Below the pieces are notes generated by a model. The model did no database searches, was not told the DNA's origin, and was given only the letters and a program-made list of their open reading frames with translations. A stretch of 63,329 bases of DNA from an uncultured Clostridia bacterium (lineage in GTDB: Bacteria; Bacillota; Clostridia; TANB77; CAG-508): positions 1 to 63,329 of the forward strand of contig CALXJX010000005.1 in assembly GCA_944388735.1 (NCBI GenBank), in the 5' to 3' direction. This document shows positions 9,679 to 49,674 of the stretch, in pieces. How positions within the stretch are numbered: position 1 is the stretch's first letter; every line of letters starts with the position of its first letter. Position numbers and translations under genes: made by a program.

Positions 9679-9893
9679 GTAACAATTCAGAGGTCAATGA
9701 GGCAAAAGTGCTTTCTTGAGTAAGCTTCGAATGTGCCGTGTAATAGATGTATAAATTCTTAGCTTAAAGTAACTGAGGAAGCGTGATTAACGAGAGGCTC
9801 GGTTATTTTAAGCTTAGAATTTGTAGTCTATGGAACAAGCCGAGAAGATTGCGAAAGAAAGCACTTTTGCCTCATTGACCTCTGAATTGTTAC
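9679..9893 (+). repeat. Nested palindromic element (NPE), full copy
   Basis: Termini GTAACAATTCAGAGGTCAAT / ATTGACCTCTGAATTGTTAC, unique self-complementary arm GAGGCAAAAGTGCTTTC, and a conserved core CGAATGTGCCGTG...CAAGCCGAG carrying an inner 87-bp hairpin. Flanked by the direct repeat GAAAACTT (9671-9678 and 9894-9901). Confidence 0.8.
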
Positions 9894-9903
9894 GAAAACT
9901 TTA

Positions 9904-10599
9904 TTACTTACAAAATCTATGCCTACCAATAGTAACAGTCATTGGTCTAGACCATATCCACTTATTAGTTGCTGTTGAAAGATTAAAATAATATATTGCT
10001 CCATAGCTTGGGTCCCATCCATTTAAAGCATCTTGAGCAGCTTTTTTAGCAGTTGAATCTGGTGTTAAATTAATTTGTCCATCTCTTACTGCATCAAATG
10101 CCCCAGACTGATATATCACTCCTGAAATCGTATTTGGAAATGAACTACTTTTGACTCTATTCATAACTACTGCACCAACTGCAACCTGTCCTGAATATGG
10201 TTCTCCTCTTGCTTCTCCATATATGACTCTTGCAAGTAAATTTAAATTGTTGGAATTGCTTGAGCTACTCGATGAACTAGATGAATTTGAACTATTATAT
10301 ATTCCCATTGCTTTTAATGTTGCAGGTCCTGCAATTCCGTCTACTGTCAGTCCATTTTTTCTTTGAAAATATTTCACTGCCTCTAATGTTTGACTCCCAT
10401 ATATTCCGTCTATATTTCCATTATAATATCCCCACCTTTTCAACTTTGTCTGAATTTGGGTTACTTCATCTCCTCTTGAACCATACTTAGATAAAGCTTC
10501 TACTTCATTATCTGTCGAAAAAATTAATATTAAAGCTATAACCAATATAATCGTTACTAAAACACTTAATATTATGAGCTTTTTCTTATTTTTTAACAT
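9904..10599 (-). CDS. sleB: Spore cortex-lytic enzyme SleB-like (PG-binding domain plus SleB hydrolase domain)
   Basis: GDEVTQIQTKLKRWGYYNGNIDGIYGSQT (PG_binding_1), a poly-Ser linker, and YGEARGEPYSGQVAVGAVVMNRV (SleB domain). The start was chosen at the ATG at 10599, which has an AGGTGG RBS. Confidence 0.8.
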   Translation of the reverse strand: MLKNKKKLIILSVLVTIILVIALILIFSTDNEVEALSKYGSRGDEVTQIQTKLKRWGYYNGNIDGIYGSQTLEAVKYFQRKNGLTVDGIAGPATLKAMGIYNSSNSSSSSSSSSNSNNLNLLARVIYGEARGEPYSGQVAVGAVVMNRVKSSSFPNTISGVIYQSGAFDAVRDGQINLTPDSTAKKAAQDALNGWDPSYGAIYYFNLSTATNKWIWSRPMTVTIGRHRFCK

Positions 10600-10718
10600 A
10601 TAAAAAAACCACCTATTCATAAAAATTTCATTTACATTTATTTTTATCAATATTTGGTTTATTATACATCTTTTTATTAAGAAGTTTTTAAATTATTCTA
10701 TGCCATATAAAATGATGC

Positions 10719-11741
10719 TCAGCAATACCTACAAAGAATAGATTCTAGCCCTATTTGCAAATCTATATTTCCGATTTTATAATTGTAGTCTAAATCTCTT
10801 AATCTCTGTAAAATTAATTGTAACTCATTTTCTTGAAAATAACTAGCTTGTGTTTTGTATTTATTAACTAAAAATATTTGATTTGGTTTTAAATTCAAAC
10901 TCTGAGCAATATCTTTTTTATAATTAATAGCTAATTTTGTCAAATATAACTTTTTAAAGTGATTATATAATGTTATTAATATTTTTTGCAATGGCTCTTT
11001 TGTATATATTAGATTTTGTAAAATTTGCAAGGCTTTTCCTACTTGTTTTTTTCCTAAATTATCTGTTAAATCAAATATTACACTTTCTATCTTTTTTATA
11101 GATAATTTATCAATGTCTTGCTTTTCAATTTTACCACCTTCACCTGCATATTCTATCAATTTTCTGATTTCATTAATCAAATCTTGCATATTTGTTCCAC
11201 AACATTCAATAAAATATCTTAAAGTTGCATCATCAATTTGTACTTTATATCCTTGGCAAATTCCTTTTAATCTTTTTTCTATTTGAAGTGGCTTTTGATA
11301 GTCAAATTTGCATGTTATTCCAAGTTTATCTATTGTTTTATATAAATCTAATTTTACATCAACATCATCTTCTATAAAAACTAATACTACACTTTTATTT
11401 ATCTCTTTTATATTTTCTTCAATATATTTTGCAATATTTTCTCTTAGCTTTTGCATTTCTACATTTTTTCTTTTTCCGTCTTTTTTTAGTATTCCTGTAT
11501 TTCTAGCTATTATTAGTTTTTTTTCATATCCAAACGCAGGAGTTTCAATATCTGAAATAATTTGATTATAATTATTATCATCAATTGTTATATAGTTAAT
11601 TCCTTTTATACACTCTCCAAATAGTGTTTTTACCTTTTTTAATGATGTTTCTAATAAAAACAATTCTTCCCCACATAAAAGATATAAACTATGTAATACT
11701 CCACTTTTTAATTCTTTTTCTAAATTTTCAATAGTTATCAT
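10719..11741 (-). CDS. holA: DNA polymerase III delta subunit
   Basis: 340 aa. N-terminus LHSLYLLCGEELFLLE and overall length are typical of HolA. Confidence 0.75.
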   Translation of the reverse strand: MITIENLEKELKSGVLHSLYLLCGEELFLLETSLKKVKTLFGECIKGINYITIDDNNYNQIISDIETPAFGYEKKLIIARNTGILKKDGKRKNVEMQKLRENIAKYIEENIKEINKSVVLVFIEDDVDVKLDLYKTIDKLGITCKFDYQKPLQIEKRLKGICQGYKVQIDDATLRYFIECCGTNMQDLINEIRKLIEYAGEGGKIEKQDIDKLSIKKIESVIFDLTDNLGKKQVGKALQILQNLIYTKEPLQKILITLYNHFKKLYLTKLAINYKKDIAQSLNLKPNQIFLVNKYKTQASYFQENELQLILQRLRDLDYNYKIGNIDLQIGLESILCRYC

Positions 11742-11863
11742 TTTTTATTTCATTCCTTTATCTTAAGCACATATAAGATTTTTCTGTATATAACAAGTTT
11801 AAACTACTTATATTCGTGCAATAATTTTGAAATATTTTTACACATCTGGCGAAGCTGCTTTCT

Positions 11864-12349
11864 TTATAATTTCTGTGCAAATTTTGCTGAATGTGCATGA
11901 CAAATTCCTATCGCCATACTATCTGTTACATCGTCTAATTTAGGTAGCTTTTCCTCATTTAATATCATTTTTACCATTCTTTGTACCTGAATTTTGTCTG
12001 CTCTTCCATATCCTGTTACTGCTTGTTTTACCTGAAGAGGTGTATATTCATATACATCTACTTTTCTTATCCTAGCAGTCATTAAGATAACTCCTCTTGC
12101 TTGTGCTACGTTTATTGCAGTTTTTGCATTATTGTTAAAGAATAATTCTTCTATTGACATTGCTTCTGGTTGGTATTTTTCTATGATTTCATCTAAGTCA
12201 TAATAAATTTTTTCTAATCTCAATGGAAATGATTGTCCTGCATCTGTTAGTATTGCTCCAGATGTTACTAATTTAAATTTGTTTCCTATATAATCTATTA
12301 TACTATACCCTGTAATTGCAAATCCTGGGTCTATTCCTAATATTCTCAT
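11864..12349 (-). CDS. ruvC: Crossover junction endodeoxyribonuclease RuvC
   Basis: MRILGIDPGFAITGY... 161 aa, with RuvC catalytic acidic residues. Confidence 0.9.
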   Translation of the reverse strand: MRILGIDPGFAITGYSIIDYIGNKFKLVTSGAILTDAGQSFPLRLEKIYYDLDEIIEKYQPEAMSIEELFFNNNAKTAINVAQARGVILMTARIRKVDVYEYTPLQVKQAVTGYGRADKIQVQRMVKMILNEEKLPKLDDVTDSMAIGICHAHSAKFAQKL

Positions 12350-12370
12350 TTTGTACCTCTAATTACTTTA

Positions 12371-12484
12371 TTTTCTAGCTGAGGAGATAGATATTATTTT
12401 TTGAACTTATCTCCGAATGTGCCGTGGCATAGCAAGCCGAGGAGATAATGAAAAAAATAATATCTATCTCCTCAGCTAGAAAAT
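12371..12484 (+). repeat. NPE, mini-core copy (no inner hairpin)
   Basis: Arms TTTTCTAGCTGAGGAGATAGATATTATTTTT and their complement enclose TTATCTCCGAATGTGCCGTGGCATAGCAAGCCGAGGAGATAA. Confidence 0.75.
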
Positions 12485-12505
12485 AATAAAATTGAACATC
12501 ATCTA

Positions 12506-14545
12506 TTATTTATTTAAAATAATCCTGAATACTTCTGAAACACTCCAAGCTTGTGCTATTGCTCCTTTTGGCAATTGTGGCTTTTTAGAATCATAAATCT
12601 CCGCTATACTTCCTATACATCCATTTTCATTTAACTCTTTATTAAATGTTTTTTCTGTTTTTTCTATAAACTTATTTAACTTCTTTTCTAAAATCTCTTT
12701 TTCTTCGTCATTCTCTGTATATTTTATCATATTTTTCAAAGCATCATAATATAGACCTAATAGCCAAGTCCAAGTTATTCCTTGATGATAGCTTGTATCC
12801 CTTTTTGCCACATCTCCCTCATAAACTTCAACATAATTTTCTTCACCTTTAGCTAATGTTTTTAATCCATAGCTATTTAAAAGTTTTTTATCTACTACTT
12901 CTATTATTTCTTTAGCAATTTCCGATGTTGGCTCTATTACTGGATATGTCATACTTAATGCAAATAATTGGTTTGGTCTTATTTTTTCATCTCCTAGAAC
13001 ATCATACAAGCATTTATTTTTTGCATTATAAAACTTCTCTTCAAATGCACTTTTACATTTTTGAGCTAATTCCTTATATCTTCTTGCTTTGATAATATGC
13101 CCTGTATCACGGGATAATTTCTCCATAATTTTATTGGCATTATACCACATAGCATTTATTTCTACTGCCTTTCCACTTCTTGGAGTTACTGCAATTCCGT
13201 CATATTTAGCATCCATCCATGTATTTTGCGTTTCTTCTGTTCCTGATACAATTAAGCCGTCTGTATCTAAATAAATATTATTACTATCTACGTCAATGCC
13301 ACTACAATACTTTTCTATAATCTCTTCTAATTTATCGTATAGTTCCTGTTTTACAAATTTTATATCTCCTGTATATTCTATATATTTTTGAATTTGTTCA
13401 AACAATAATAATGAAGCATCTACACTATTATATAACGGTCTGTTATCATATCCTGAATATCCATTTGGAACCAAGCCATATTTTATATCTCTTACCATAG
13501 TCAATAATACTTCTTTTGCTATATCATATCTTTTAGTTACTAATAATAGTCCTTCAAATGCGATAAGAGAATCTCTTCCCCAATCTAAAAACCAAGGATA
13601 ACCTGCAATAATTGTATGTAATCTAAAATTTGGTCTGTATACAATAAAGTTGTCTGTTGCAAGAATTAATTGTTTAATTAATTCTTCTTTATTAATTTGT
13701 TTTTTTGTTTTCTTTTTATTTTCTTCTATTAACTCTGTATTTTTTATTATCTTATCCAATCTCCAAATTTCTTTATCTATCATATCTTGGACATCAATTT
13801 CTTCTATATTATCTTCTAATGAACATACAAAGGAAATATTTTTTTGTTCTCCAGCCTTTATTTCTACTTCATATATACCTGGCACACAATGATTTTCTTC
13901 TGGATAAAATCCTCTTTTTTGCTCTTCGACATAAAACATGTTACGAAATATGTCGTTTTCATGTATAATATAATTACCTTCAGACAAATTCAGATATATT
14001 GGAGTTTGAGAGTTTCCATTCAAAATTAATTTAACCTTTGCATTGTGCACAAATTGTTTTACTTCAAAATGGTCTTCATTATTTAATGTATGAAAATCTC
14101 TAAAGTTTACAACAGGTGCTAAAGTCAATTTTGCATCTTTTTCTCCGTTTTTTATTTTATAATATATTCCTACTGTATTTTTTTCGTATTCCATACATAT
14201 TGTCTTAGTAATTTCTACATCTTGTATTTTATATTTAAAAGTTGGCAAATATTCTTTCTCAAAAGACTCTTGATATTGATATCCTTGAGAAATATATGAT
14301 TCGCATAAATTAGTATAAAAACTATATTTTTGACCTTCTATTTCGATAGATTCGTCTAACTTTGAAAGTATTAAAAATCTTCTAGCTGGTGGTGTTAATG
14401 GCGCTATTAGTAGTCCATGATATTTCCTTGTATTAGCCCCTAAAATAGTTGAAGAACTATATCCTCCTATTCCATTTGTTATTAACCATTCTTTGTTTAA
14501 TCCATTTTCTATATTTAGACTTTCTTTTGTAAATTTCATTTTCAT
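12506..14545 (-). CDS. Glycogen debranching enzyme (amylo-alpha-1,6-glucosidase family)
   Basis: 679 aa. N-terminus NGIGGYSSSTILGANTRKYHGLL and C-terminal GDE-type (alpha/alpha)6 region motifs. Confidence 0.7.
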   Translation of the reverse strand: MKMKFTKESLNIENGLNKEWLITNGIGGYSSSTILGANTRKYHGLLIAPLTPPARRFLILSKLDESIEIEGQKYSFYTNLCESYISQGYQYQESFEKEYLPTFKYKIQDVEITKTICMEYEKNTVGIYYKIKNGEKDAKLTLAPVVNFRDFHTLNNEDHFEVKQFVHNAKVKLILNGNSQTPIYLNLSEGNYIIHENDIFRNMFYVEEQKRGFYPEENHCVPGIYEVEIKAGEQKNISFVCSLEDNIEEIDVQDMIDKEIWRLDKIIKNTELIEENKKKTKKQINKEELIKQLILATDNFIVYRPNFRLHTIIAGYPWFLDWGRDSLIAFEGLLLVTKRYDIAKEVLLTMVRDIKYGLVPNGYSGYDNRPLYNSVDASLLLFEQIQKYIEYTGDIKFVKQELYDKLEEIIEKYCSGIDVDSNNIYLDTDGLIVSGTEETQNTWMDAKYDGIAVTPRSGKAVEINAMWYNANKIMEKLSRDTGHIIKARRYKELAQKCKSAFEEKFYNAKNKCLYDVLGDEKIRPNQLFALSMTYPVIEPTSEIAKEIIEVVDKKLLNSYGLKTLAKGEENYVEVYEGDVAKRDTSYHQGITWTWLLGLYYDALKNMIKYTENDEEKEILEKKLNKFIEKTEKTFNKELNENGCIGSIAEIYDSKKPQLPKGAIAQAWSVSEVFRIILNK

Positions 14546-14577
14546 TCCTCCATTACTTTTCTGTGTATTTCTTTACA

Positions 14578-16272
14578 CTATCTATCTTTTGTTTTTATTC
14601 TTTTTGCGTTTCTAGTATTTGTCTTTGTATTGTCTTTATAACTTTTTTCCTCGTAGTTATTTACACTATCTAAATTGCTTTGCATTTTGTTTACTTTTGT
14701 TTGTCTTGAAATTTCTTTTTGATTTTCTTTCTCTTCTTTTTCTACCTTTTTTAATTTTTTAGCAATATCTTTATCTATCTTTACTTTTGATTTAGCATCA
14801 GCTTCTCTAATAGAAGCTATCCTGTCACTATATTTAGTACTAAATTTGCTTTTTCCTTTTTTAGAATCTTCTTTATGTCTTCCTTCATTTTTCCCCTCAT
14901 TTTTCTTTTCTTTTTTCTCCATAGCTTTTTTTATCTTATTTATTCTTTTTTCTTCTCTTAGTTTGGTATTTAGCATCACATATTGAGGGTCGTTTTCTTT
15001 ATCTTGATATTTTAAGTCATCACAAATTAATTCGATTATTGATGTAGCAACTAAATTAGGATCATGTCTAATATGTCCATTTGAAATCATAGATAAATTT
15101 CTTTGTAAAAATCTAATTCCTTTTACTTTATCAATGTCTTGCTCAACTAAATCTTGTCCTTCTAGATTATATTTCTTTATAAATTCTGGAATAATTTCTC
15201 CTGTATCATAAATACAATAATCAACTATTCCTTGTCCACAATGCTCTATAATAGCATTTAAATGGTCTGACACCCCATAATTATCTGTTTGACCCGGCTC
15301 TGTCATAATATTACTAATGTATACTTTAATTGCTGTACTTTCTTTTATAGCTCTTGCTACTCCATTTACTAAAAGATTTGGTATAACATTTGTATACAAA
15401 CTTCCAGGTCCAATAATTATACAATCAGCATTTTTTATTGCATCAATAACTCCAGGTGCTGGCTTACAATTTGACGGACTAAGATATATTCTACTAATTT
15501 TTGTTATCTTTTCTGAAACAACTTCTGGTATTCTTGATTTTTCTTCCACAACATATCCATTTTCCAATTCTGCCATGATATTCATCTCGTCTAAAGTTAC
15601 TGGGATAACTCGTCCTATCATATTTAAAACTTCATTGCTTTTTATAATAGAATCTTCAAAGTTTCCATTTATGTCTTTCATTGCAGAAAAATAGATATCA
15701 GAAAAATTTAGTCCTCTTAATTTTCCTTTTGAAAATTCATAATTAAATAATTTATCAATCTGTCCTTCTTTAGATGCTAATGATATAATACTATCTTTTA
15801 TATCTCCTAATGGTAATACTTCTAGCTCTCTTCTTGAATTAGACATTGCTTCCCCGTAATCTGATACTGTTACAATAGCAGTCAAATTACTTGTGTATTG
15901 TTTTAATCCTGATAAAACAGTATTTAATCCTGTTCCCCCGCCTATCACAACTATATTAGGGCCTTGGTCATATACTGTTTTGTCAAATATTAATGATTTT
16001 ACATTAACATTTTTCTTTTTTTCCATTCTTTCATCTGTTGACTCTATTAATATCTCTAACGTCCTTTTATTTAAAAATATTAAACCTAAAACTATTGCTA
16101 CAAAGCCAACAACAAAAATTACAACAATTTGTCCAACTTCTTGAAATGATATTTCTTTCATTACTAAAATTTTAGCTAGTCCATAGCAAGCTAAAATAAT
16201 TCCTACTAATATTAGAAATATCCATCTTTTCATTTTATTACTTGATTTAAACCAGTGCACTAATCCTTTCAC
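14578..16272 (-). CDS. yvcK: YvcK/CofD-like gluconeogenesis/morphogenesis factor with N-terminal TM segments and a long K/E-rich tail
   Basis: Core motif VVIGGGTGLNTVLSGLKQYTSNLTAIVTVSDYGE. Two hydrophobic helices lie at the N-terminus. The C-terminal part is a long low-complexity, Lys-rich extension. Confidence 0.8.
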   Translation of the reverse strand: MKGLVHWFKSSNKMKRWIFLILVGIILACYGLAKILVMKEISFQEVGQIVVIFVVGFVAIVLGLIFLNKRTLEILIESTDERMEKKKNVNVKSLIFDKTVYDQGPNIVVIGGGTGLNTVLSGLKQYTSNLTAIVTVSDYGEAMSNSRRELEVLPLGDIKDSIISLASKEGQIDKLFNYEFSKGKLRGLNFSDIYFSAMKDINGNFEDSIIKSNEVLNMIGRVIPVTLDEMNIMAELENGYVVEEKSRIPEVVSEKITKISRIYLSPSNCKPAPGVIDAIKNADCIIIGPGSLYTNVIPNLLVNGVARAIKESTAIKVYISNIMTEPGQTDNYGVSDHLNAIIEHCGQGIVDYCIYDTGEIIPEFIKKYNLEGQDLVEQDIDKVKGIRFLQRNLSMISNGHIRHDPNLVATSIIELICDDLKYQDKENDPQYVMLNTKLREEKRINKIKKAMEKKEKKNEGKNEGRHKEDSKKGKSKFSTKYSDRIASIREADAKSKVKIDKDIAKKLKKVEKEEKENQKEISRQTKVNKMQSNLDSVNNYEEKSYKDNTKTNTRNAKRIKTKDR

Positions 16273-16363
16273 AATTGTTTCATCCTTCCATTGTAGTATT
16301 TAATTCTTGTTACTTTTTTAATAAATCGTAAAATTATAATTTAAACTTATCAAAATCATACTG

Positions 16364-17281: not shown

Positions 17282-17296
17282 GGTTAATCTCTCCTT

Positions 17297-18568: not shown

Positions 18569-18577
18569 AAGGAGGAT

Positions 18578-19986: not shown

Positions 19987-20058
19987 AGTAATAGCTCAGA
20001 GGTCAATAGATGAAAAATGTTTTTTTTCATCTATCGACCTCTGAACTTTGCAATTACT
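19987..20058. repeat. NPE-related empty hairpin (termini only, no core)
   Basis: GCTCAGAGGTCAATAGATGAAAAA / TTTTTCATCTATCGACCTCTGAAC shares the CAGAGGTCAA terminus of the NPE family. Confidence 0.6.
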
Positions 20059-33118: not shown

Positions 33119-33138
33119 AGAATTTCCTTTCTTTTATT

Positions 33139-33206
33139 CCACGGCACATTCGTCAATAACTTCAAATGATAATCCCCCAATTCGACGAAACATTACCGAA
33201 ACCTAA
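33139..33206 (-). repeat. Half copy of NPE family (inverted relative to 3151-3217)
   Basis: CCACGGCACATTCGTCAATAACTTCAAATGATAATCC... is the reverse complement of the CGAATGTGCCGTGG half-core plus arm. The partner arm is missing. Confidence 0.6.
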
Positions 33207-37248: not shown

Positions 37249-37466
37249 CGTAATAATTCAGAGGTAAAAGCTGGGATAATCATTTCTTGAGCAAGATTCG
37301 AATGTGCCGTGGAATAGATGTATAAATTCTTAGCTTAAAATAACTGAGGAAGCGTGATCAACGAGAGGCTCGGTTATTTTAAGCTTAGAATTTATAATCT
37401 ATGGAGCAAGCCGAGAAGATTGTAAAAGAAATGATTATCCCAGCTTTTACCTATGAATTATTGTAC
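37249..37466 (+). repeat. NPE, full copy
   Basis: Termini GTAATAATTCAGAGGTAAAAG.., unique arm CTGGGATAATCATTTC and its complement, and the conserved core with inner hairpin. Confidence 0.8.
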
Positions 37467-37556: not shown

Positions 37557-37814
37557 TTAATTATCTTCGTCCTTGTTTCTAAATTTTGACTCTAATAATA
37601 TCAAGCAAAATATTGATACAGCAGCACCGATTATGCTACCTACCCACATTCCAATAATAATCGCTAATATTATTATTCCAAATTCTCCTTGGCGGGATAC
37701 TCCATAGCCAATAAGAGCTCCAATAAACGCTCCTGTTACTGCCATAACAAAGAAAATCGAAGAAGATATTTGGCTGTTATACTTTTCTAGTCTTTTGCTT
37801 TTCCGTCCCTTCAT
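37557..37814 (-). CDS. Small Gly-zipper membrane protein (85 aa), bracketed by two NPE copies; contains CGG-A at codon 4
   Basis: GGGAGG RBS 9 nt upstream. Two TM helices rich in GxxxG (GAFIGALIGYG, GMWVGSIIGAAV). Codon 4 is CGG followed by A (37802-37805). Confidence 0.5.
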   Translation of the reverse strand: MKGRKSKRLEKYNSQISSSIFFVMAVTGAFIGALIGYGVSRQGEFGIIILAIIIGMWVGSIIGAAVSIFCLILLESKFRNKDEDN

Positions 37815-37971
37815 AAAAATACCTCCCTTTATTATTAATATTTATTAATGAACTGGATTAATACCAGTAATAAAAAGGATTTTATCTGCAAATGGCTATT
37901 ACCATATTAATATAATTATATCTTATATTTACATAAACTTCAACAATTGAGCATTACTTTTTTAATAACTT

Positions 37972-38188
37972 GTAACAGTTCAGAGGTCAATAGGGAAAAA
38001 TATGATTTCTTAAGTCGGATTCGAATGTGCAGTGGAATAGATGTATAAATTCTTAGCTTAAAATGACTGAGGAAGCGTGATTAACGAGAGGCTCGGTCAT
38101 TTTAAGCTTAGAATTTATAATCTATGGAGCAAGCCGAGAAGACGAAGAAAGAAATCATATTTTTCCATATTGACCTCAGAACGGTTAT
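37972..38188 (+). repeat. NPE, full copy
   Basis: Termini GTAACAGTTCAGAGGTCAATA / TATTGACCTCAGAACGGTTAT, unique arm GGGAAAAATATGATTTC and its complement, and the conserved core. Flanked by AATAACTT (37964-37971) and AACAACTT (38189-38196). Confidence 0.8.
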
Positions 38189-38194
38189 AACAAC

Positions 38195-40924
38195 TTATTC
38201 ATCTTTAGTTGTGTTTATTTTAAATAACTTAAATAGCTCTACAATTAATAATGGAGCAAATATTAAACATACTAATTCAATGATATTTCCTACTGGTAAT
38301 AATGGTATGCTAAATATACTTCTTAATGCTGGTATTGCTAAAATAATAAACATCAAAGCAGCTGAGCCTAATACAGCCCAAATTAATTTACTATTATTAA
38401 ACACTTTTGTTTTAAATATTGATTTTTTATTATTTCTTATGTTAAATACATGTACAAGTTCAGATAATGCAAGTGTAACAAAAGCCATTGTTTGACCAAC
38501 TTCTATTTTTGACTCGTCTAATGTCAAACCGTCTATTGGAGTAGTTGTTGTTGCTAATCCTATCATAAATGCTGCTAATGTTAATAATCCTATCATTACA
38601 CCTTGATAGATAACTCTCCATGTCATTCCTTTTGTAAATACACCTTTTCCCGGTTTATTTGGTTTTCTTCTCATTATATCTTCATTTGCTGGATCAAATG
38701 CTAATGCCAAAGCTGGTAGTGAGTCTGTTACTAAATTTATCCATAATATATGAATTGGTAACAATATTTCTAAATGAGTAATATCTGATATTCCAAACCA
38801 TTGTGCGAATAACGGTGTACAAAGTGTTGCTAAAAATAATACTACTATTTCACCTACATTACTTGATAATAAAAATTGTATAACCTTTAAGATATTGTCA
38901 TATATTCTTCTTCCTTCTTCTACTGCTGATACTATTGTTGCAAAATTATCATCTGTTAATATTACATCTGCCGCTTCTTTTGCTACATCTGTTCCAACAA
39001 CCCCCATTGCACATCCAATATCTGATCTTTTTAGTGCTGGGCTATCATTTACCCCGTCACCTGTCATAGCGACAATTTCTCCATTTTTTTGCCATGCCTT
39101 TACAATTCTAACTTTATGTTCTGGTGAAACTCTTGCATATACAGAATATTTTCTCACATTTTTTTCTAGTTCTTCATCAGACATTTTTTCTAAATCTTGA
39201 CCTGTTATTGCTTCGTCTTCATTTTCTAGAATTCCTAATTTCTTTGCTATTGCTGTAGCCGTTATCTTGTGGTCTCCAGTTATCATAATTGTTTTTATTC
39301 CTGCTGTTTTACATTTTTCTACTGCTTTTTTTGCTTCCTCTCTTGGTGGATCTATCATTCCTACCATTCCTATAAATGTTAGATTATTTTCCATGTTTTC
39401 CATTTCTTCAGTAGTTGGTTTATGATCTATTTCTTTATACGCACAAGCTAGCACCCTTAATGCTTCTTTTGCCATTTCTTCATTTTTTTGTCTGATTATT
39501 TCAGCATATTTCTCTAAATCTGATTTTACTTCTCCATTTAATAAATAATTATTGCATCTTTTTAATAATTCGTCTACTCCACCTTTTGTATACACAACAT
39601 ATTTTCCATTAAATTCATTTACTGTTGTCATTAACTTTCTGTCAGAATCAAAAGGTATTTCTTGGACTCTAGGCATCATATCGTATATACTTGGCTCAAA
39701 ATCTAGTTTGAATGCCATATCTACTAATGCTGTTTCTGTTGGGTCTCCTGTTAAATTTCCATCTTTAGATATTTTGGTATCATTACATAGCATATTTGCA
39801 TATACTAATTTTTTTACATCTTCATTATTATTTTGCTCTTTATAATCTTTAACATCTTTTGTTTCAGAATTTATAAAGATTTTCTCTACTGTCATTTTAT
39901 TTTGTGTTAATGTTCCAGTTTTGTCTGAGCATATTACTGTTGCACTTCCTAATGTTTCAACTGCTGGTAATCTTTTTACAATAGCATTTCTTTTTACCAT
40001 TTTTTGAACACCTATTGCTAGAACAATTGTTGATACTGCAACTAATCCTTCTGGTATAGCTGCAACTGCTAAACTTACTGCTGTCATAAACATCTGAATT
40101 GGTTCTTTTCCTTGAAGTAATCCTATAAAGAATATAACCACACATATTGCAAGTGCTGCAATACCTAATGTCTTTCCTAATTTATTTAGTTTTTGTTGTA
40201 ATGGTGTTTCTTGTTTTTCTGTACTATTTATCATTCCTGCTATTTTTCCAACTTCTGTTGTCATCCCTGTCTCTACAACAATTCCTTTTCCTCTACCGAA
40301 TGTTACCAAACTTGAAGAGAATAACATATTTAGTCTATCTCCAACGCCAACTTCTGTATCTTCAATTTTTTCAGTATTTTTTTCTACTGGCACAGATTCT
40401 CCTGTAAGAGAAGCTTCCTGTGATTTTAAATTTACAGCTTCTATAATTCTTAAATCTGCTGGTATATAGTCTCCTGTATCAAGAACAACTATATCTCCTG
40501 GTACTAATTCTTTTGCAGGAATTACTGTTACTTCTCCATTTCTAACTACCTTTGATGCATGGTCTGTTAATTTTTGCAAGGCTTCTAATGATTTTTCTGC
40601 TTTTGCTTCTTGACTTACTCCTATAATAGCATTTACAATAACTACTATTAATATAATAATTGTGTCTGTTATTCCTTCTCCTTCAGCTATTCCAACAGCT
40701 CCTGAAACTATTGCTGCAATTATTAGTACAATTATTGAGAAGTCTTTAAATTGATCTAGAAATCTTTGTAGTAAAGATTTCTTTTTTGCCTCTTTTAATT
40801 GATTTAAGCCATATTTTTCTTGTCTTTTTTGAACTTCTTCTGTCGTTAACCCTTTTTCTAAGTCTGTATTTAGTTCTTTTTCAACATCCTTTACTTCTTT
40901 GTTAAACCACTTGATGTTTTCCAA
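38195..40924 (-). CDS. P-type ATPase, P2 (Ca2+-transporting) type
   Basis: 909 aa. TGES, AIPEGL, CSDKTGTLT, MITGDH and TGDGVNDSPALK motifs. N-terminal Cation_ATPase_N-like segment. Confidence 0.85.
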   Translation of the reverse strand: MENIKWFNKEVKDVEKELNTDLEKGLTTEEVQKRQEKYGLNQLKEAKKKSLLQRFLDQFKDFSIIVLIIAAIVSGAVGIAEGEGITDTIIILIVVIVNAIIGVSQEAKAEKSLEALQKLTDHASKVVRNGEVTVIPAKELVPGDIVVLDTGDYIPADLRIIEAVNLKSQEASLTGESVPVEKNTEKIEDTEVGVGDRLNMLFSSSLVTFGRGKGIVVETGMTTEVGKIAGMINSTEKQETPLQQKLNKLGKTLGIAALAICVVIFFIGLLQGKEPIQMFMTAVSLAVAAIPEGLVAVSTIVLAIGVQKMVKRNAIVKRLPAVETLGSATVICSDKTGTLTQNKMTVEKIFINSETKDVKDYKEQNNNEDVKKLVYANMLCNDTKISKDGNLTGDPTETALVDMAFKLDFEPSIYDMMPRVQEIPFDSDRKLMTTVNEFNGKYVVYTKGGVDELLKRCNNYLLNGEVKSDLEKYAEIIRQKNEEMAKEALRVLACAYKEIDHKPTTEEMENMENNLTFIGMVGMIDPPREEAKKAVEKCKTAGIKTIMITGDHKITATAIAKKLGILENEDEAITGQDLEKMSDEELEKNVRKYSVYARVSPEHKVRIVKAWQKNGEIVAMTGDGVNDSPALKRSDIGCAMGVVGTDVAKEAADVILTDDNFATIVSAVEEGRRIYDNILKVIQFLLSSNVGEIVVLFLATLCTPLFAQWFGISDITHLEILLPIHILWINLVTDSLPALALAFDPANEDIMRRKPNKPGKGVFTKGMTWRVIYQGVMIGLLTLAAFMIGLATTTTPIDGLTLDESKIEVGQTMAFVTLALSELVHVFNIRNNKKSIFKTKVFNNSKLIWAVLGSAALMFIILAIPALRSIFSIPLLPVGNIIELVCLIFAPLLIVELFKLFKINTTKDE

Positions 40925-41357: not shown

Positions 41358-41417
41358 TTTAATTAATCTATATATTTATACCATTTTTTTTTACTTTAGT
41401 CAACTACTTTTTTTAAA

Positions 41418-42699
<1,282 letters not shown>

Positions 42700-42825
42700 T
42701 TCTTCCTCCTTACTAATTTATTTGTAATCGTAAAATTAGTTCAAGATTATATTATAAATTACATTTATAATGCTTAAAGTTTAATATTACTTAAACTACT
42801 AAAATAATGAATTTCTTTATTTAAA

Positions 42826-43836
42826 TTACTCAAAATAATCTAACATCATAGCTTTTTTTACTTTCTTCATTGTTTCTTGTGCAGTCTTTCTTGCCTTAGC
42901 AGTTCCTTCTATCAAAACTTTATCTACTTCTTCTGGATGTGCCTCGTAATATTCTCTCTTCTCTCTTATAGGTCTTAAATACTCTATGATATTGTTAGCT
43001 AATTGCTTTTTACAAGCTACGCAGCCTCTTTTTCCTGCTCTACATTCTTCACAGACCACTTTTACATCTTCTGGTTTTGTAAATAATTTATGATAATATG
43101 CAACCATACAAATATCAGGATTTCCTAAATCATCTTTTTTTATTCTGTTTGGATCTGTTACAGCACTCATAACCTTTTTCGTTATTTCTTCTTCAGAATC
43201 AGCTAAATATATTGCATTTCCTAAAGATTTTCCCATTTTTTCGTTTCCATCTAATCCTTTTATTCTCTTTCCTTCTGACAATACAATTTTTGGCTCAACT
43301 AGAACTTCCCCATAAATACTATTAAATTTTCTTACAATCTCTCTACATTGTTCTATTAATGGTTCTTGATCTTCTCCTGCTGGTACCAATTCTCCTTCAA
43401 ATGTTGTTATATCTGCTGCTTGACTTACTGGATATCCTAGAAATCCATAAGTTACACTTTCTCCAAATAATTCCTTTTTTTGTGCAATTTCTGTTTTAAC
43501 TGTTGGGTTTCTTTGAAGTCTTGCTATTGTCACTAAATTAGAATAATATACCGTTAACTCTGCTGTTTCTGGTATCATTGACTGTATATATATTGTCGTT
43601 TTTTCTGGGTCTATACCACAAGACAAATAGTCAATTGCTAGTTCTCTTACATTTTTTCTTACTTTTTCTGGATTGTTAAAATTATCTGTTAGTGCTTGAA
43701 CATCTGCAATTAAAATATACATATCATATTTTCCACTATTTTGCATTTCTATTCTTTTTTTTAAAGAACCAAAATAATGTCCAATATGTAATTTTCCTGT
43801 TGGCCTATCACCTGTTAAAATCCTCTTTTTGTCCAT
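42826..43836 (-). CDS. trpS: Tryptophan--tRNA ligase
   Basis: 336 aa. GKLHIGHY (HIGH) and KMGKS (KMSKS) motifs. Confidence 0.85.
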   Translation of the reverse strand: MDKKRILTGDRPTGKLHIGHYFGSLKKRIEMQNSGKYDMYILIADVQALTDNFNNPEKVRKNVRELAIDYLSCGIDPEKTTIYIQSMIPETAELTVYYSNLVTIARLQRNPTVKTEIAQKKELFGESVTYGFLGYPVSQAADITTFEGELVPAGEDQEPLIEQCREIVRKFNSIYGEVLVEPKIVLSEGKRIKGLDGNEKMGKSLGNAIYLADSEEEITKKVMSAVTDPNRIKKDDLGNPDICMVAYYHKLFTKPEDVKVVCEECRAGKRGCVACKKQLANNIIEYLRPIREKREYYEAHPEEVDKVLIEGTAKARKTAQETMKKVKKAMMLDYFE

Positions 43837-43931
43837 TTTTCATTATCACCCTTTCTCATACTTACTTAAAATTCTTTTTATTTTAATATTTCTTTATCTA
43901 TAATTTTAATATTTCCTTTTTCTTAATATTC

Positions 43932-45296
43932 TTACATTTCTGCAATTAAGTCATAATTGTCAACATATATTATCTTACATTTTATAAATTTATTTATAAA
44001 TTTTTCTGGGTTTTCTTCGGCATTGTTTTTTATGTATACTAATCCGTCAATATCCGGAACATCTTGCATAGTTCTTCCTATATAATATCTTCTGTCAAAA
44101 GACATATCTTCTATTAAAACTTCATACTCTTTTCCAATTTTCTTCCTTAAATTTTGATTCGAAACTTTCTGCTGAATTTGCATTATCTTATTATATCTGC
44201 TTTTCTTTGTATTTCCGTGTATCTGGTCTGGCAACTTTGCTGCTGGAGTGCCTTCCTCTCTTGAATACATAAAAGCTCCTAACTTATCAAATTTAGCTTG
44301 CTGAACAAACTTACACAATTCTTCAAAATCTTCGTCTGTTTCTCCTGGAAATCCTACCATTAAACTTGTCCTTAATGTCACTTCTGGTATTCTTTCTCGA
44401 ATTTTTTCAATTAATCCTTGGATTTGCTCTTTACTTGTTTTTCTATTCATTTTTTTTAACATGTTATTAGCTATATGTTGAACTGGAATATCAAAATATT
44501 TTGCTATTTTATCATTATTAGCAACAAATTCAATTAACTCATCTGAAATTCCTTCAGGGTAAGAATACAAAAATCGAATCCATTTTAATTCTTTTATTTT
44601 ACTCAATTCCTGCAATAGCTCTGTTAATTTACTTTCTCCATAAATATCAATTCCATATTTTGTTGTATCTTGTGCTATCACTATCAACTCTTTAATTCCT
44701 TTTTTTACTAATGCTTTTGCCTCTTGTAAAATATCTTCCATTTTTCTGCTAACAAAAGGACCTCTTATATATGGAATTGCACAATATGTACACCTATTGC
44801 TACATCCTTCTCCAATCTTTAAATATGCATAATTCTTACCTGTACTTATTTCTCTGTTTAAAAATTCTTCTTGTGTTAACATCGGCATTGGAGATATTTC
44901 AGATATTTTCTTAATTGACTTCGTTTTTGATTTTTCTACAATTCCTCTTTTTATTAAATCTTCAATTTTTTCCCATATACAGTCATATTCATCTAATTTT
45001 ATAAATAAATCTACTTCTGGTAATGCTTTTTGCAAATCATCATAATATCTTTGGACTAAACATCCCATTACAATTAAATATTTGCATTTTTGCTTTTTAT
45101 ATTCGGCCATTTCTAGTATTGTATTTATTGCTTCTTCTTTTGCAGAATCAATAAATCCACACGTATTTATAATAATTATATCTGAATCCTTTTCTTCATT
45201 CACAATTTCTAATCCGTGCTCTTTGCATATTCCTATTGTTGCTTCTGTATCAATTAAATTTTTACTACATCCTAAGTGTACAAATCCTATTTTCAT
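43932..45296 (-). CDS. rimO: Ribosomal protein S12 methylthiotransferase RimO (radical SAM MTTase)
   Basis: KIGFVHLGCSKNLIDTE, NTCGFI, CSNRCTYCAIP (CxxxCxxC) and a C-terminal TRAM domain. Confidence 0.8.
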   Translation of the reverse strand: MKIGFVHLGCSKNLIDTEATIGICKEHGLEIVNEEKDSDIIIINTCGFIDSAKEEAINTILEMAEYKKQKCKYLIVMGCLVQRYYDDLQKALPEVDLFIKLDEYDCIWEKIEDLIKRGIVEKSKTKSIKKISEISPMPMLTQEEFLNREISTGKNYAYLKIGEGCSNRCTYCAIPYIRGPFVSRKMEDILQEAKALVKKGIKELIVIAQDTTKYGIDIYGESKLTELLQELSKIKELKWIRFLYSYPEGISDELIEFVANNDKIAKYFDIPVQHIANNMLKKMNRKTSKEQIQGLIEKIRERIPEVTLRTSLMVGFPGETDEDFEELCKFVQQAKFDKLGAFMYSREEGTPAAKLPDQIHGNTKKSRYNKIMQIQQKVSNQNLRKKIGKEYEVLIEDMSFDRRYYIGRTMQDVPDIDGLVYIKNNAEENPEKFINKFIKCKIIYVDNYDLIAEM

Positions 45297-45343
45297 TTTT
45301 AACCGTTTCCCTTCCTAAAGTAATGAATCTTTCCTTTCGCACA

Positions 45344-46528
45344 TTAGTCTCTATGACTACAAATATGTTTTCTTGTCAATTCCATTAAATCTAATTTTGT
45401 AAATCCCTCTACTTGTGTTTTGGCTCTATCTTTTCTTAATTCTAATTTTAATAGATTTTCTATTTTATTTTTATTTTCTTCTTTTTGCATATCTATATAG
45501 TCAATAATAATTATACCTCCGATATCTCTTAGTCTTAATTGTTTAGCAATTTCTATAGTGGCTTCTTCATTAACCTTATATATAGTTTGGTCTAAGTTTT
45601 TTGTACCTGTATATTTTCCTGTATTGACATCTATTGCTGTTAAAGCTTCTGTTTTATCTATAGTGATAAAACCTCCACATTTTAGCCATATTTTTCTATT
45701 TTCTATTTTTTCAATTTGTTTTTCAATATCATATTGGCTAAAAATTTTATCTGTTGATTTCATTACAATATTTAAATCCTTATATTCTTCATTATAATTT
45801 TTTATTTTTTCTATCTTATCATACTCTTCCTTATCATTTACTACTATATTTTTTAAGTTTTTATCTGCAAGATCTATTAAAATTTTCTCTATGATATCTT
45901 CGCTCTTATATAATAGTTGTGGCTTATTTTCATTTGGATTTATGCTAGTTTGTATTATTTTATTCCATTTGTTTTCTACATATTTTATATCTTTTATAAT
46001 TTCTTGCTCTTTATTTTCTGCTGCTGTTCGTATTACTGCACCATTTCCTTCTGATAAATTTTTTCTTACTAAATTTATTAATCTTTTTTGCTCATTTTTA
46101 TCTTCTATTTTTTGAGATATTGTTATTATATCTGTATTTGGCATTAACATTATGTACTTACTTGGTAAGTTGATATGTGTTGAAATTCTTGCTCCTTTTT
46201 TTTCATTGCTATCTTTTTTTACCTGTACTAACATTTTTTGTCCAATCTTTAAAATGTCTTCAATTTTTACATCTGTATTTTGCTTTTCTTTAGTTTCATC
46301 TACTTTAGGTAAAATATCTTTTAAATGTATAAAACCATTTTTTTCTGTCCCTATATCTACAAATGCCGCTTGCATACCTTTTATTATGTCTTTTACAATT
46401 CCTATATATATATTTCCTTCATTTCTATTTGACTCATTATTTTCCTCGTAATATTCTTCCAATATACCATCATTTATTAATGCTATATATTTCTTGCCTT
46501 CTTCTTTTTTTATGTTTAATTCTAACAT
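45344..46528 (-). CDS. rng: Ribonuclease E/G family protein (short form)
   Basis: S1 domain (GNIYIGIVKDIIKGMQAAFVDIG), then catalytic core motifs (AIDVNTGKY, IIIIDYIDM). Confidence 0.75.
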   Translation of the reverse strand: MLELNIKKEEGKKYIALINDGILEEYYEENNESNRNEGNIYIGIVKDIIKGMQAAFVDIGTEKNGFIHLKDILPKVDETKEKQNTDVKIEDILKIGQKMLVQVKKDSNEKKGARISTHINLPSKYIMLMPNTDIITISQKIEDKNEQKRLINLVRKNLSEGNGAVIRTAAENKEQEIIKDIKYVENKWNKIIQTSINPNENKPQLLYKSEDIIEKILIDLADKNLKNIVVNDKEEYDKIEKIKNYNEEYKDLNIVMKSTDKIFSQYDIEKQIEKIENRKIWLKCGGFITIDKTEALTAIDVNTGKYTGTKNLDQTIYKVNEEATIEIAKQLRLRDIGGIIIIDYIDMQKEENKNKIENLLKLELRKDRAKTQVEGFTKLDLMELTRKHICSHRD

Positions 46529-46603
46529 TTTCTATTTTCGCTCCCTTTATTAATAAGTAACATTATTTTTTCTATGTTTATATTATAAATTGTTTTATAA
46601 ATT

Positions 46604-47161
46604 TTAGTTATATTTATTCATTGCATTGTCTATTCCATTCAAAATAATATCTACAACTGCATCTTTAGCTAATGTTGTTGATTTATCTAATTTACTGAAT
46701 TCTTCTTCAGGAACATAACCAATTACATAATTTATCATTTCTTCTTTATTAGCTGGCTTTCCTATCCCTATCCTAATTCTTGAAAATTCTTCTGTTCCTA
46801 AACATGATATTACTGATTTCATTCCGTTATGAGAACCTGAGCCTCCTTTTTTTCTTAGTTTTATTGTTCCTATATCTATGTCCATGTCATCATAAATTAC
46901 AATTATGTTTTTGAAGTCTATTTTATAAAAGTCTACTACTTCCTTTATGCTTTCTCCACTTAGGTTCATATATGTTTGAGGCTTTAGTAATATGACTTTT
47001 TCTTCTTCTATTGTTCCTGTTCCTATTAAACCTTTAAATTTGTTTTTATTGATTTTTATATCATATTCTCTGGCTAATTTGTTAATAACATGAAACCCCA
47101 TATTATGTCTGGTTCTATCATATTCTTTTTCTGGATTTCCTAGGCCTACTATTAAGTACAT
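46604..47161 (-). CDS. pth: Peptidyl-tRNA hydrolase
   Basis: MYLIVGLGNPEKEYDRTRHNMGF... 185 aa. Confidence 0.9.
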   Translation of the reverse strand: MYLIVGLGNPEKEYDRTRHNMGFHVINKLAREYDIKINKNKFKGLIGTGTIEEEKVILLKPQTYMNLSGESIKEVVDFYKIDFKNIIVIYDDMDIDIGTIKLRKKGGSGSHNGMKSVISCLGTEEFSRIRIGIGKPANKEEMINYVIGYVPEEEFSKLDKSTTLAKDAVVDIILNGIDNAMNKYN

Positions 47162-47340
47162 TTTTAATTTTTTTCCTTTCTTTTTATTTTCTTTTTTGTA
47201 TTGTCTTCTATTATTTTTGTAATATAACTATTTTTTCTATACTATTTTACCTTGTTTTTGCCTTTTTTTCAAGCTTTTTTATTTAATATAATAAAAATAG
47301 AATAATTTTTCAAAGGTTAACGGGGGAATAATTTTTCAAC

Positions 47341-47366
47341 AAAAAAAAGCACCTAAGTGCTTTTTT
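47341..47366. terminator. Intrinsic terminator after spoVG
   Basis: AAAAAAAAGCAC-CTAA-GTGCTTTTTT. Confidence 0.6.
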
Positions 47367-47375
47367 ATCTATAAA

Positions 47376-47657
47376 TTATTCTGCTGATTCCTCTGTTCCT
47401 TCAGCTTCTGGAGCTTCATAAGCTTCTAATATAGCTGTTTGAATTTTTTCTCTAGTTTCAGCATTGATTGGATGAGCTATATCTTTGAATTCTCCGTTTG
47501 GAGTTTTTCTACTTGGCATAGCTATAAATAATCCATTTTGGCTTTCGATAACTTTGATGTCATGAACAACAAATTCATTATCGAATGTTACAGAAGCAAC
47601 AGCTTTCATTCTGTTCTCTGAATTTACTTTTCTTAAACGTACATCTGTGATTTGCAT
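47376..47657 (-). CDS. spoVG: Septation protein SpoVG
   Basis: [38 protein letters not shown]... The start was chosen at the ATG at 47657 (GGAAGGCGG RBS). The 27-codon upstream extension in the ORF track is unlikely. Confidence 0.9.
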
Positions 47658-47799
47658 TTTGCGTGCACCGCCTTCCTTAAGTTTTAAATTTATTTGTACA
47701 TATCCGTTAATCTTATGTACAGTTATATTATTCTCCATAAATTTATTTTATCCTTCTTTTTTTTACATTTTTTATAAATAAAATTTAATAAATTATAAT

Positions 47800-47925
47800 A
47801 ACAGTTCTCAACCTCTATAATAAGCTAAAAAATGTTGATATATTAATATTGAAAAAATTTATAAAATATTAATACATCAATATTTTAAGAAGTAATTTTA
47901 ATATATAAATTGTAACGAACTACTA
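47800..47925. repeat. AT-rich palindromic element (family 2), second copy
   Basis: Contains CCTCTATAATAAGCTAAAAA (47812-47831), identical to 6830-6849, plus internal arms AAAATGTTGATATATTAATATT / AATATTAATACATCAATATTTT. Confidence 0.55.
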
Positions 47926-48012
47926 CTTAAAATTTCCAAAAAAATTGTAAAACTATTGAATTTTTCAACATATAATTATATAATCAATCTATTATAAGGA
48001 GGATGTACAAAA

Positions 48013-49395
48013 ATGCCAAATATAGAAAACATAAAAAAATATAAAAATATACATATGATTGGAATCGGCGGAGTTAGTATGAGTGGAATTGCTGCAATTT
48101 TAAAAAATTGGGGTTTTCATATTACAGGTTCAGACACATCTAACTCCGAATCTGTTCGACTTTTATTAGATAGGGGTATAAAAGTAACAATTGGTCATAA
48201 TTTAGAAGATGTTGCAGCAAGTGATGTAGTAGTATATTCTGCAGCAGTAAAGCAAACTGACCCAGAAATTCTTGAAGCTAAAAGATTAAATATACCAACT
48301 ATTGAACGAGCTGACTTTTTAGGTGAATTAACTCGTTGCTATAAAGATACTATTTGTATCTCTGGAACACATGGAAAGACAACAACTACTTCTATGGTTT
48401 CATTATGTTTTATAGAGGCTTTAAAAGATCCTAGTATTCAAGTTGGAGCATTTTTAAAACCTTTGAATGGAAATTATCGTGTTGGAAATAGTGAACATTT
48501 TATTATTGAAGCTTGTGAATATGTCGAAAGTTTTTTAAAATTTAGTCCTAAAGCCGAAATTATTTTAAATATTGATAATGACCATTTAGACTATTTCAAA
48601 ACTTTTGATAATATAAAAAGTGCTTTTATTAAGTATGTAAAATTGTTACCTGATGACGGAATTTTAATTATAAATGGTGATGATTCAAATTGTTTGGACT
48701 TACCACAATATACAAATTGTAAATGTATTTCTTATGGAATCACAAATAAAAATACGGACTTTTTTGCAGTAGATATTGTATTTAATAAAGATGGTTTTGC
48801 CGAATTTGATGTATATCATCATAATCAATTTTTTGACAGAATAAGTTTATCTGTTCCAGGAATGCATAATGTTTTAAATGCTTTAGCTTGTATATCTTTA
48901 TGTACAGAATATGGAATTGATAAAAAAGATATTAAGAATGCTTTATTAAAATTCACAGGTGCACACAGAAGATTTGAATTTAAAGGCAAAATAAATGGCA
49001 TTGCTAGTGTTTATGATGATTATGGTCATCATCCAACAGAAATCTTAGCAACTGCCAAATCTTTAATGAATAAAGAATATAATAAATCTTGGGTTATTTT
49101 TCAGCCACATACTTACAGTAGAACTAAAAACCTTTTAGATGATTTTGCTAAAGCTTTATTAAATTTTGATAATATCGTCATTTTAGATATTTATGCTGCA
49201 AGAGAAAACAATGTATATGGAATTTCTTCCAGAGATTTAGCTGATAAGATTTCTTCTTTTGGAAAAGATGCTAAATATATTCCAGATTTTGATGATTGTG
49301 TTTCTTATATTAAAGAAAATGTTCAAAAAGACGATATTGTTATAACTCTTGGTGCCGGAACTGTTACAGAAATCGGTCCTTTACTTGTAAACTAA
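48013..49395 (+). CDS. murC: UDP-N-acetylmuramate--L-alanine ligase
   Basis: IHMIGIGGVSMSGIAAIL, GTHGKTTTTSM. 460 aa. Confidence 0.9.
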   Translation: MPNIENIKKYKNIHMIGIGGVSMSGIAAILKNWGFHITGSDTSNSESVRLLLDRGIKVTIGHNLEDVAASDVVVYSAAVKQTDPEILEAKRLNIPTIERADFLGELTRCYKDTICISGTHGKTTTTSMVSLCFIEALKDPSIQVGAFLKPLNGNYRVGNSEHFIIEACEYVESFLKFSPKAEIILNIDNDHLDYFKTFDNIKSAFIKYVKLLPDDGILIINGDDSNCLDLPQYTNCKCISYGITNKNTDFFAVDIVFNKDGFAEFDVYHHNQFFDRISLSVPGMHNVLNALACISLCTEYGIDKKDIKNALLKFTGAHRRFEFKGKINGIASVYDDYGHHPTEILATAKSLMNKEYNKSWVIFQPHTYSRTKNLLDDFAKALLNFDNIVILDIYAARENNVYGISSRDLADKISSFGKDAKYIPDFDDCVSYIKENVQKDDIVITLGAGTVTEIGPLLVN

Positions 49396-49397
49396 AG

Positions 49398-49674
49398 CCT
49401 TGAACTTTGGGGACAGTCTTTAAAGTTCAAAATAGTAACATTTTAAAAGAACTAAATGGCAAATTATACTTTCTTGAACAAGCTTCGAATGTGACGTGAA
49501 ATAAATGTATAAATTCTTAGCTTTAAATAACTGAGGAAGCGTGATTAACGAGAGGCTCGGTTATTTTAAGCTTAGAATTTATAATTTATGTAACAAGCCG
49601 AGAAGATTGTGAAAGAAAGCATAATTTGCCATTTAATCTCTTTGAACTTTAAAGACTGTCCCCAAAGTTCAAAG
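49398..49674 (+). repeat. NPE, full copy embedded in an additional ~33-bp outer palindrome
   Basis: Outer arms CCTTGAACTTTGGGGACAGTCTTTAAAGTTCAAA and their complement, inner arms AAATGGCAAATTATACTTTC and their complement, and the conserved core. Sits between the convergent murC and spoIVB stops. Confidence 0.8.

Follow-up and report, generated by a model that had tools for sequence, protein, structure and literature searches.

Known repeats of bacterial intergenic DNA offer several points of reference for a dispersed palindromic element, whose copies are described here from a 63,329-nt stretch of an uncultured Clostridia bacterium (contig CALXJX010000005.1 of assembly GCA_944388735.1; hereafter the window, meaning the whole stretch analysed). 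The bcr1 repeats of the Bacillus cereus group display compensatory changes, a strain-variable distribution and short flanking direct repeats (PMC3184786). Correia elements occur in 155-bp and 107-bp forms differing by an internal 50 bp, and ERIC sequences are whole-length imperfect palindromes in intergenic transcribed regions, with an orientation-dependent effect on RNA (PMC2229807). REP/BIME sequences are G+C-rich palindromes of 20-40 bp headed by GTAG or CGTC (PMC3733652); the element of the window is about 215 bp long, A+T-rich and headed by GTAAC, and falls outside that group.

The repeats are best read as one MITE-like family and not as a pile of independent insertions. They probably represent a single lineage-specific family of miniature inverted-repeat transposable elements (MITEs), i.e., non-autonomous DNA transposons, the whole body of which is one hairpin (probability about 0.6). 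The window, which matches a metagenome scaffold in ENA, has a G+C content of 28% and belongs to a spore-forming Clostridia-like host, its genes being the housekeeping set of a spore-former (SleB, SpoVG, SpoIVB, CtsR, MurC, RuvC). Strain contigs (L0xx) for comparison were obtained via exact-protein look-ups; the strains are 1-4% apart and clearly recombining.

Architecture, copies and ends of the repeat

Read from the outside in, a full copy consists of the terminal repeat GTAACARTTCAGAGGTCAA, a variable arm of ~15 nt, the motif TTTCTTGAG with a short variable helix (P2), box1 (GAATGTGCCGTGGAATAG), an inner hairpin of ~30 bp capped by a 20-nt loop (GAAGCGTGATTAACGAGAGG) and box2 (ATGGAGCAAGCCGAG), after which the complements of P2, arm and terminus follow. 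The body is one non-coding hairpin of ~100 bp, for which the computed folding energy is -105 kcal/mol (z = -16), while the complementary strand folds at -90 kcal/mol. The three unpaired modules (box1, box2 and the terminal loop) are nearly invariant across copies, and conservation increases inward to the centre, the termini excepted. All these parts are enriched in the window: box1 (GAATGTGCCGTGG, up to 2 mismatches allowed) has 8 sites against 0.11 expected by chance, box2 has 8 against 0.96, a 27-nt loop sequence 5 against 0, and the terminus TTCAGAGGTCAA 11 against 4.6.

In total, 12 copies or remnants, sized 64-217 bp and carrying no open reading frame, lie in the 63 kb: five full copies (c1 to c5), two mini copies (m1, m2), two terminus-only copies (e1, e2) and three left halves. 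The first nine had been listed by a first-pass annotation made from the sequence and were all found in place; the three halves, added by profile search and alignments, were missing from its list. Copy c1 (9679..9893, + strand) has the complete set of GTAAC terminal repeats, variable arms, box1, inner hairpin and box2, lies 11 nt past the sleB stop and has the 8-bp duplication GAAAACTT on either side (9671-9678 and 9894-9901; 8/8). Copy c4 (37972..38188, + strand) is flanked by AATAACTT (37964-37971) and AACAACTT (38189-38196), matching at 7/8 and overlapping the stop codon of a P-type ATPase gene, and c3 (37249..37466, + strand) by the approximate pair AAATTCC and AAATCC. The most diverged full copy, c2 (26271..26480, + strand), has degenerate ends (ATAAATTTTTCAG...) and no recognisable duplication in its flanks; its arms match at 37/37 positions. 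In c5 (49434..49640, + strand), the left terminus is decayed (GTAACATTTTAAAAGAAC) and the right one mostly lost. This copy is enclosed by a hairpin 3' of murC (49398..49674; CTTGAACTTTGGGGACAGTCTTTAAAGTTCAAA and its complement), the arms of which had been assigned to the element and belong instead to the host.

The mini copy m1 (12371..12484, + strand) has arms with box1 and box2 but no inner hairpin, the junction being GTGGCATAG/CAAGCC (a slash marks junctions throughout), and the junction of m2 (21017..21125, - strand), GTGGAA/ATGGAGCAAGCC, is unlike it. Without any core, e1 (19987..20058) comprises the terminal repeats and a short arm hairpin, and e2 (29335..29398) has a perfect 8-bp duplication (8/8), AAAACAGA, at 29327-29334 and 29399-29406; e2 lies inside a host inverted repeat (29308-29338 / 29414-29444). 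As to the halves, the one at ~3160..3222 (+ strand) includes a degenerate terminus, the arm and box1 and is cut directly after box1; a second (33129..33200, - strand), directly upstream of the rnhA start codon, is cut at the same point, and a third (47300..47340, + strand) is a degenerate left-arm remnant, TTCAAAGGTTAACGGGGGAATAATTTTTCAAC. Almost all copies lie 0-50 nt past a stop codon, which bears out the earlier placement of most of them at gene 3' ends, and most are antisense to the flanking genes. The common orientation of 8/10 orientable copies is not significant. Copies c3 and c4, in the same orientation, flank a gene for an 85-aa membrane protein (37557-37814), and two metagenome contigs with this gene end inside the flanking copies; this arrangement may be due to chance or may represent a composite unit.

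Terminal inverted repeats of 19-30 bp starting with GTAAC are present in c1, c3, c4, e1, e2 and a copy on the strain contig L011; they are degenerate in c2, c5, m1 and m2. The L011 copy is flanked by TCCAAATT and CCCAAATT, matching at 7/8. Moreover, the window contains a second repeat family of 84-120 bp: its 84-bp copy (6816..6899) has 12-bp terminal repeats, GTTACTATTCAC/GTGAATAGTAAC, and the 8-bp duplication around it, AATTGCAT, is perfect (8/8); another copy lies at ~47797-47916. The first ten bases of the 84-bp family and the main family follow a common motif, GTWACWATTC, and these like ends suggest that one transposase serves both.

Such features (terminal inverted repeats, a fixed-length 8-bp duplication and small, non-coding, dispersed copies) are those of a MITE. 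IS200/IS605-type elements, which have subterminal hairpins in place of terminal repeats, make no target duplication and lie near a Y1 transposase, fit poorly, given the terminal repeats and 8-bp duplications and the lack of a Y1 gene among those genes of the window that were examined. The inverted repeats of IS66-family elements measure 20-30 bp and begin with GTAAGCG, and their duplications are 8 bp long (PMC11946415), so that repeat length and duplication agree with the element, and only GTAA is shared at the ends (GTAAC against GTAAGCG). The ends and the duplication might thus point, weakly and as a lead only, to the IS66 family. No IS66-type gene was seen, and no autonomous element with the same ends is present in the window. 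The only transposase-like gene there (27963-29096, - strand; Pfam Transposase_31, YhgA/Rpn-like) lies ~240 bp from e2; it was rejected as the mobiliser, having no terminal repeats around it and a single genomic context.

The distribution is narrow. The 21-nt loop sequence was found on one other contig (L001) among 185,579 species genomes; this contig carries three copies, has a firmicute-like, A+T-rich content and comes from a metagenome-assembled genome labelled Rickettsiales. One JGI/ENA metagenome contig also matches the element. There was no match among viral contigs, plasmids and phages, and a phage or plasmid origin was rejected for this reason. Likewise, no copy was present in 18 kb from a relative at the genus level, whose MurC is 83% identical. 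High density in the window with near-absence elsewhere is more in keeping with a selfish element than with an RNA that is widely conserved.

In the mechanism that would follow, a DDE transposase making 8-bp staggered cuts would move the copies in trans, and most surviving insertions would be those in 3' intergenic DNA, some of them at the tips of terminator-like hairpins. Selection or arm-to-arm copying might then keep the box1-to-box2 strand paired in its single-stranded form. The long palindrome would be unstable, and deletions round the inner hairpin and the centre would yield the mini, terminus-only and half forms.

Several observations weigh against a single MITE family. The copies c2, m1 and m2 lack both clean GTAAC ends and duplications, the IS66 link amounts to four shared bases and the duplication length, and a transposase with matching ends was not found in the window. 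Element presence varies between strains at four sites, but no exact empty site, in which the duplication would be present only once, was recovered, since the element-less alleles at these sites are either deletion-like or too divergent to show it. The direction of allele changes rests on sequence logic and not on a tree because the strains recombine. Finally, a plain MITE model accounts neither for the perfect arms that the old-looking copies c2 and m1 keep nor for loops that are far better conserved than the stems.

Arm pairing and rival explanations

In the variable segment, complementarity is 97.4% between an arm and its own partner, compared with 48.4% between arms from different copies; for whole arms, the values are 82-96% and 58%, respectively. 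The first-pass annotation had described the arms as perfectly palindromic in every copy. They are only nearly so, with mismatches in c4, c5 and m2, and its contrast between self-complementarity and difference from copy to copy holds, except that the arms look related between copies. By eye, they form GGGAWWATCA-like and GGCAAA groups, and the halves at 3160 and 33129, from different loci, share ~80% identity including arm and P2, as read from the alignment. Since these two halves share an arm, the arms appear to be inherited parts of the element. The terminal repeats differ between copies as well, and do so symmetrically in both arms.

Compensatory change was quantified with RNAalifold on 10 sequences from 7 loci, including three strain variants of the m1 site and two of the c1 site. 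Of the 62 pairs predicted in the consensus, 24 show compensatory double changes. Paired cells make up 95.8% against 88.8% in shuffled alignments, and pairs changed on both sides number 24 against 11.2, neither value being reached in any of 500 shuffles (0/500 each); with sliding partners, only 38-49% were paired. Compensation is also visible in one stepwise series across strains. In the copy of the gde-ruvC spacer (the m1 site), the left arm of the inner hairpin is constant, and the right arm reads CTCGGTTATTT, CTCGTTTATTT or CTCGTTTGTTT by strain, with two, one and no mismatches, respectively; judged from these alleles, pairing also seems to be restored in place. The earlier proposal of a long stem kept paired around conserved loops agrees with these data. 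Furthermore, transition mismatches in the stem are mostly G.T on the box1-to-box2 strand and not A.C (~13 against 3 independent cases, manual count). The + strand has a strongly negative GC skew, which by our reasoning should act in the reverse direction. Arm complementarity could stem from arm-to-arm correction, from inter-copy conversion or from selection acting on the top strand as a folded RNA or DNA.

One rival explanation is that the repeat is, or has become, a functional structured or cis-acting RNA, transcribed from box1 to box2, in which invariant loops bind a protein or RNA and stems are free to vary as long as they pair; possible roles are those of an mRNA 3'-end stabiliser, a terminator or a processing site. 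Invariant loops beside covarying helices are what such an RNA should show, as are an invariant U.G pair, the excess of G.U over A.C on one strand against the skew, a top-strand fold 15 kcal/mol more stable than that of the complement, and the position shortly past stop codons. By eye, box1 and box2 beside P2 could form tandem sheared G.A pairs, similar to a kink-turn or loop E. Nevertheless, we regard such an RNA as unlikely. Most copies are antisense to their neighbours, and a consensus scan for an internal promoter gave no consistent site; in its candidate, TTGAGY-17-TGKAAT, the second base of the -10 hexamer is not the crucial A. Essentially a single species carries the element, strains lose or truncate copies without visible consequence, and the terminal repeats and duplications show spread as mobile DNA.

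Known families were of no help to the RNA explanation either. An Rfam match, which the first-pass annotation had named as telling against its view, was looked for and not found: at gathering score, Rfam 15 gave two tRNAs in the window and no match to the element, and permissive scans returned only hits to miRNA precursor models, of the generic long-hairpin kind and well under threshold. With four Rfam scans empty and a comparison by eye of the hammerhead and twister core motifs with the loops failing, a known RNA family or ribozyme was dropped. A literature search for the box sequence found nothing.

A different explanation of the pairing is that a folded single strand moves or is maintained, one arm being copied from the other, so that arms are complementary whatever their sequence. 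Fold-back synthesis at transposition, mismatch correction in an extruded hairpin or an attC-like, structure-specific recombinase could provide the copying. The gap between own-arm and cross-copy complementarity is as expected, and so are the perfect arms of the most diverged copies, the steps of the gde-ruvC right arm toward matching an unchanged left arm in strains 1-4% apart, the symmetrical variation of the terminal repeats and the bias of mismatches to one strand. However, uncompensated polymorphisms also occur, the stepwise series could run in reverse via conversion from other copies, and 8-bp duplications fit double-strand integration by a DDE enzyme; neither IS200/IS605 single-strand transposons nor attC recombination is known to make such duplications. 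The copies examined had no integrase, Y1 or HUH gene in their vicinity. Overall, a mobile or maintained single strand seems very improbable. The narrower claim, that active copying (one arm templating the other, at transposition or in place) keeps the arms complementary while the loops serve as protein handles, is decidedly doubtful. If true, it would mean a bacterial mobile element recognised by shape, not sequence, and yet integrating with target duplication.

Strain alleles, short forms and nesting

Full and short forms of the element occur as alleles at the gde-ruvC spacer, where every element-bearing contig has the same arms. Seven contigs (L005, L018, L019, L022, L023, L025 and L026) carry the full core and are the majority. 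Three have the mini core with the junction AATAG/CAAGCC, namely L017 (the window's own scaffold, with the identical allele), L020 and L021, and one (L024) has the left arm only, with breakpoints at an 8-bp direct repeat, TATTATTT. The L024 allele had raised the idea of an insertion that creates an inverted flank copy. It was rejected in favour of deletion because the breakpoints are a direct repeat, because the L024 arm aligns with the left arms of other copies and because the element-less murC allele lacks a stem segment kept by a more distant strain.

In the latter case, the murC-spoIVB spacer, L012 has a filled allele, and L013 and L014 show just a hairpin, GGGGACAGTCTTT-GAACTTT-AAAGACTGTCCCC, whose breakpoints fall at a TCTTT repeat. 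The hairpin of L013 and L014 is best read as a deletion, since it lacks AAAGTTCAAA, a stem segment that the more distant L011 keeps. In L011, the long outer hairpin is retained around an unrelated interior, so that the murC host hairpin occurs without the element in all three of these contigs. In L016 (1640-1695), the same hairpin tip is followed to the contig end by unrelated sequence, GTACTGAACCCAAAAAGTTGGACAC..., probably the end of another mobile element. Elsewhere, c1 is absent from L020 and L021, and the L011 copy from the six other alleles of the spoVG-murC spacer. The sequences of e1, e2 and m2 do not differ from the window in the other strains found, which for m2 are three strain contigs.

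Three minis at three loci have three junctions: GGAATAG/CAAGCC (m1), GGAA/ATGGAGCAAGCC (m2) and TGAA/GAGCAAGC (third locus). In addition, three left halves end within 5 nt (<=5 nt) of the inner-hairpin base. Together with the strain alleles, these ends lead to the reading of mini, terminus-only and half forms as deletion products; the base of the inner hairpin is best understood as a fragile point and the short forms as decay products of the full element. By eye, parts of the arm and of the TTTCTT motif are still present in e1 and e2, in keeping with a central deletion. A tree-based direction of the allele changes was dropped, since aligned distances show recombining strains. In L021, holA (939-1961) is ~19% divergent when L017-L022 are compared, while the adjoining ruvC differs by 0.4%, which indicates recombination with a divergent lineage inside the population.

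These alleles bear on an explanation by successive insertion, in which an 87-bp inner hairpin entered a box1/box2 element, this one a GTAAC-ended hairpin MITE, and the latter host terminators, mini and empty copies being uninvaded shells. Conservation does rise inward, the termini excepted, as if inner layers were younger, and nesting is real. Both c5 and e2 sit in the tips of larger host inverted repeats, the L011 copy in the terminus of an older half copy, the L016 sequence at the murC hairpin tip, and the copy L001b (L001 ~3095-3280, - strand) has a foreign insert of ~180 bp inside box2. But site-specific insertion should give one mini junction and not three, full and mini alleles at gde-ruvC share identical arms with the full ones in the majority, the inner layers have no bounding duplications or terminal repeats, and the internal remnants in e1 and e2 fit central deletion. 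Such stacking was the Russian-doll history of the first-pass annotation; it stands for the outermost layer and a few secondary insertions, fails for the box pair and the inner hairpin, and its shells give way to deletion. As a history of the whole element, it is very unlikely, and one MITE-like family decaying by deletion is preferred.

The junctions of the L001b insert are ...ATAGAACAA/TAGCGGGC...CTATAACTGAC/CAAGCCGAG, and in L011 (9630-9660) this junction sequence is found again, ahead of box2 in a half copy; a further small element thus appears to target box2. The idea that the variable arms are guides or captured sequence was discarded, as no second arm match exists anywhere in the window.

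Two genes have unusual structures. In the window, recG consists of two overlapping frames, 7553-9286 and 9270-9623 (- strand; 117 + 577 aa). The same split is present in L017-L019, RecG of L021 is intact (681 aa), and the split gene may be either a frameshifted pseudogene or a tolerated split. The window's obg (41418-42350, - strand; 310 aa) looks N-terminally shortened, retaining no more of the GTP1_OBG domain than its end; L011 (3186-4467) has the gene in two pieces of 383 + 33 aa, with a left-half copy directly adjoining the stop codon of obg.

Comparison with described repeats

With about one copy per 5-6 kb, and provided that the window is typical, the family would occupy a few percent of a small genome. 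Many genes receive a 3'-end hairpin from a copy, and the stretch directly preceding rnhA is itself a half copy. The family also breaks metagenome assemblies, as L009, L010, L015 and L001 all end inside a copy. With stepwise alleles within one species, it offers a natural case for the persistence and decay of long palindromes and for stem complementarity under drift.

Like bcr1, the element is a dispersed intergenic Firmicute repeat (~150-200 bp) with flanking direct repeats, strain-variable presence and compensatory pairing. However, bcr1 has 5-bp direct repeats, a cruciform-like fold and known transcription, whereas the present element has 8-bp duplications, GTAAC ends, a single long hairpin and three invariant unpaired modules, with no sequence similarity between the two. 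With the Correia/NEMIS elements of Neisseria it shares terminal inverted repeats, a long hairpin as transcript (a predicted one here) and two size classes set by an internal segment (here ~215 against ~115 bp). In contrast, Correia elements have a TA duplication, unrelated 24-bp repeats and uniform size classes, and here each mini has its own junction. The enterobacterial ERIC/IRU sequences are likewise whole-length imperfect palindromes in intergenic DNA, but measure 127 bp, have TA ends and unrelated sequence and occur in many genera, while the present element is confined essentially to one species. IS66 elements agree in the 8-bp duplication, the GTAA start and the 20-30 bp repeats, with a match of the first four bases only.

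Integron attC sites also combine a variable hairpin sequence with kept pairing and a few unpaired features, at gene 3' ends and with one-strand specificity. As in attC, the hairpin sequence of the element varies while pairing and a few unpaired features are kept, its copies lie at gene 3' ends, and it too shows one-strand specificity. In attC, it is the outer boxes (GTTRRRY) and not the centre that are conserved, there are no duplications, and the sites form cassette arrays next to an integrase. None of these attC-specific features was seen here; the right end reads GTTACGA, which does not agree with GTTRRRY, and the copies lie among housekeeping genes with duplications at their borders. Overall, every trait of the element has a precedent in bcr1, Correia or ERIC, and these precedents are of form, with no sequence relationship to any of the three.

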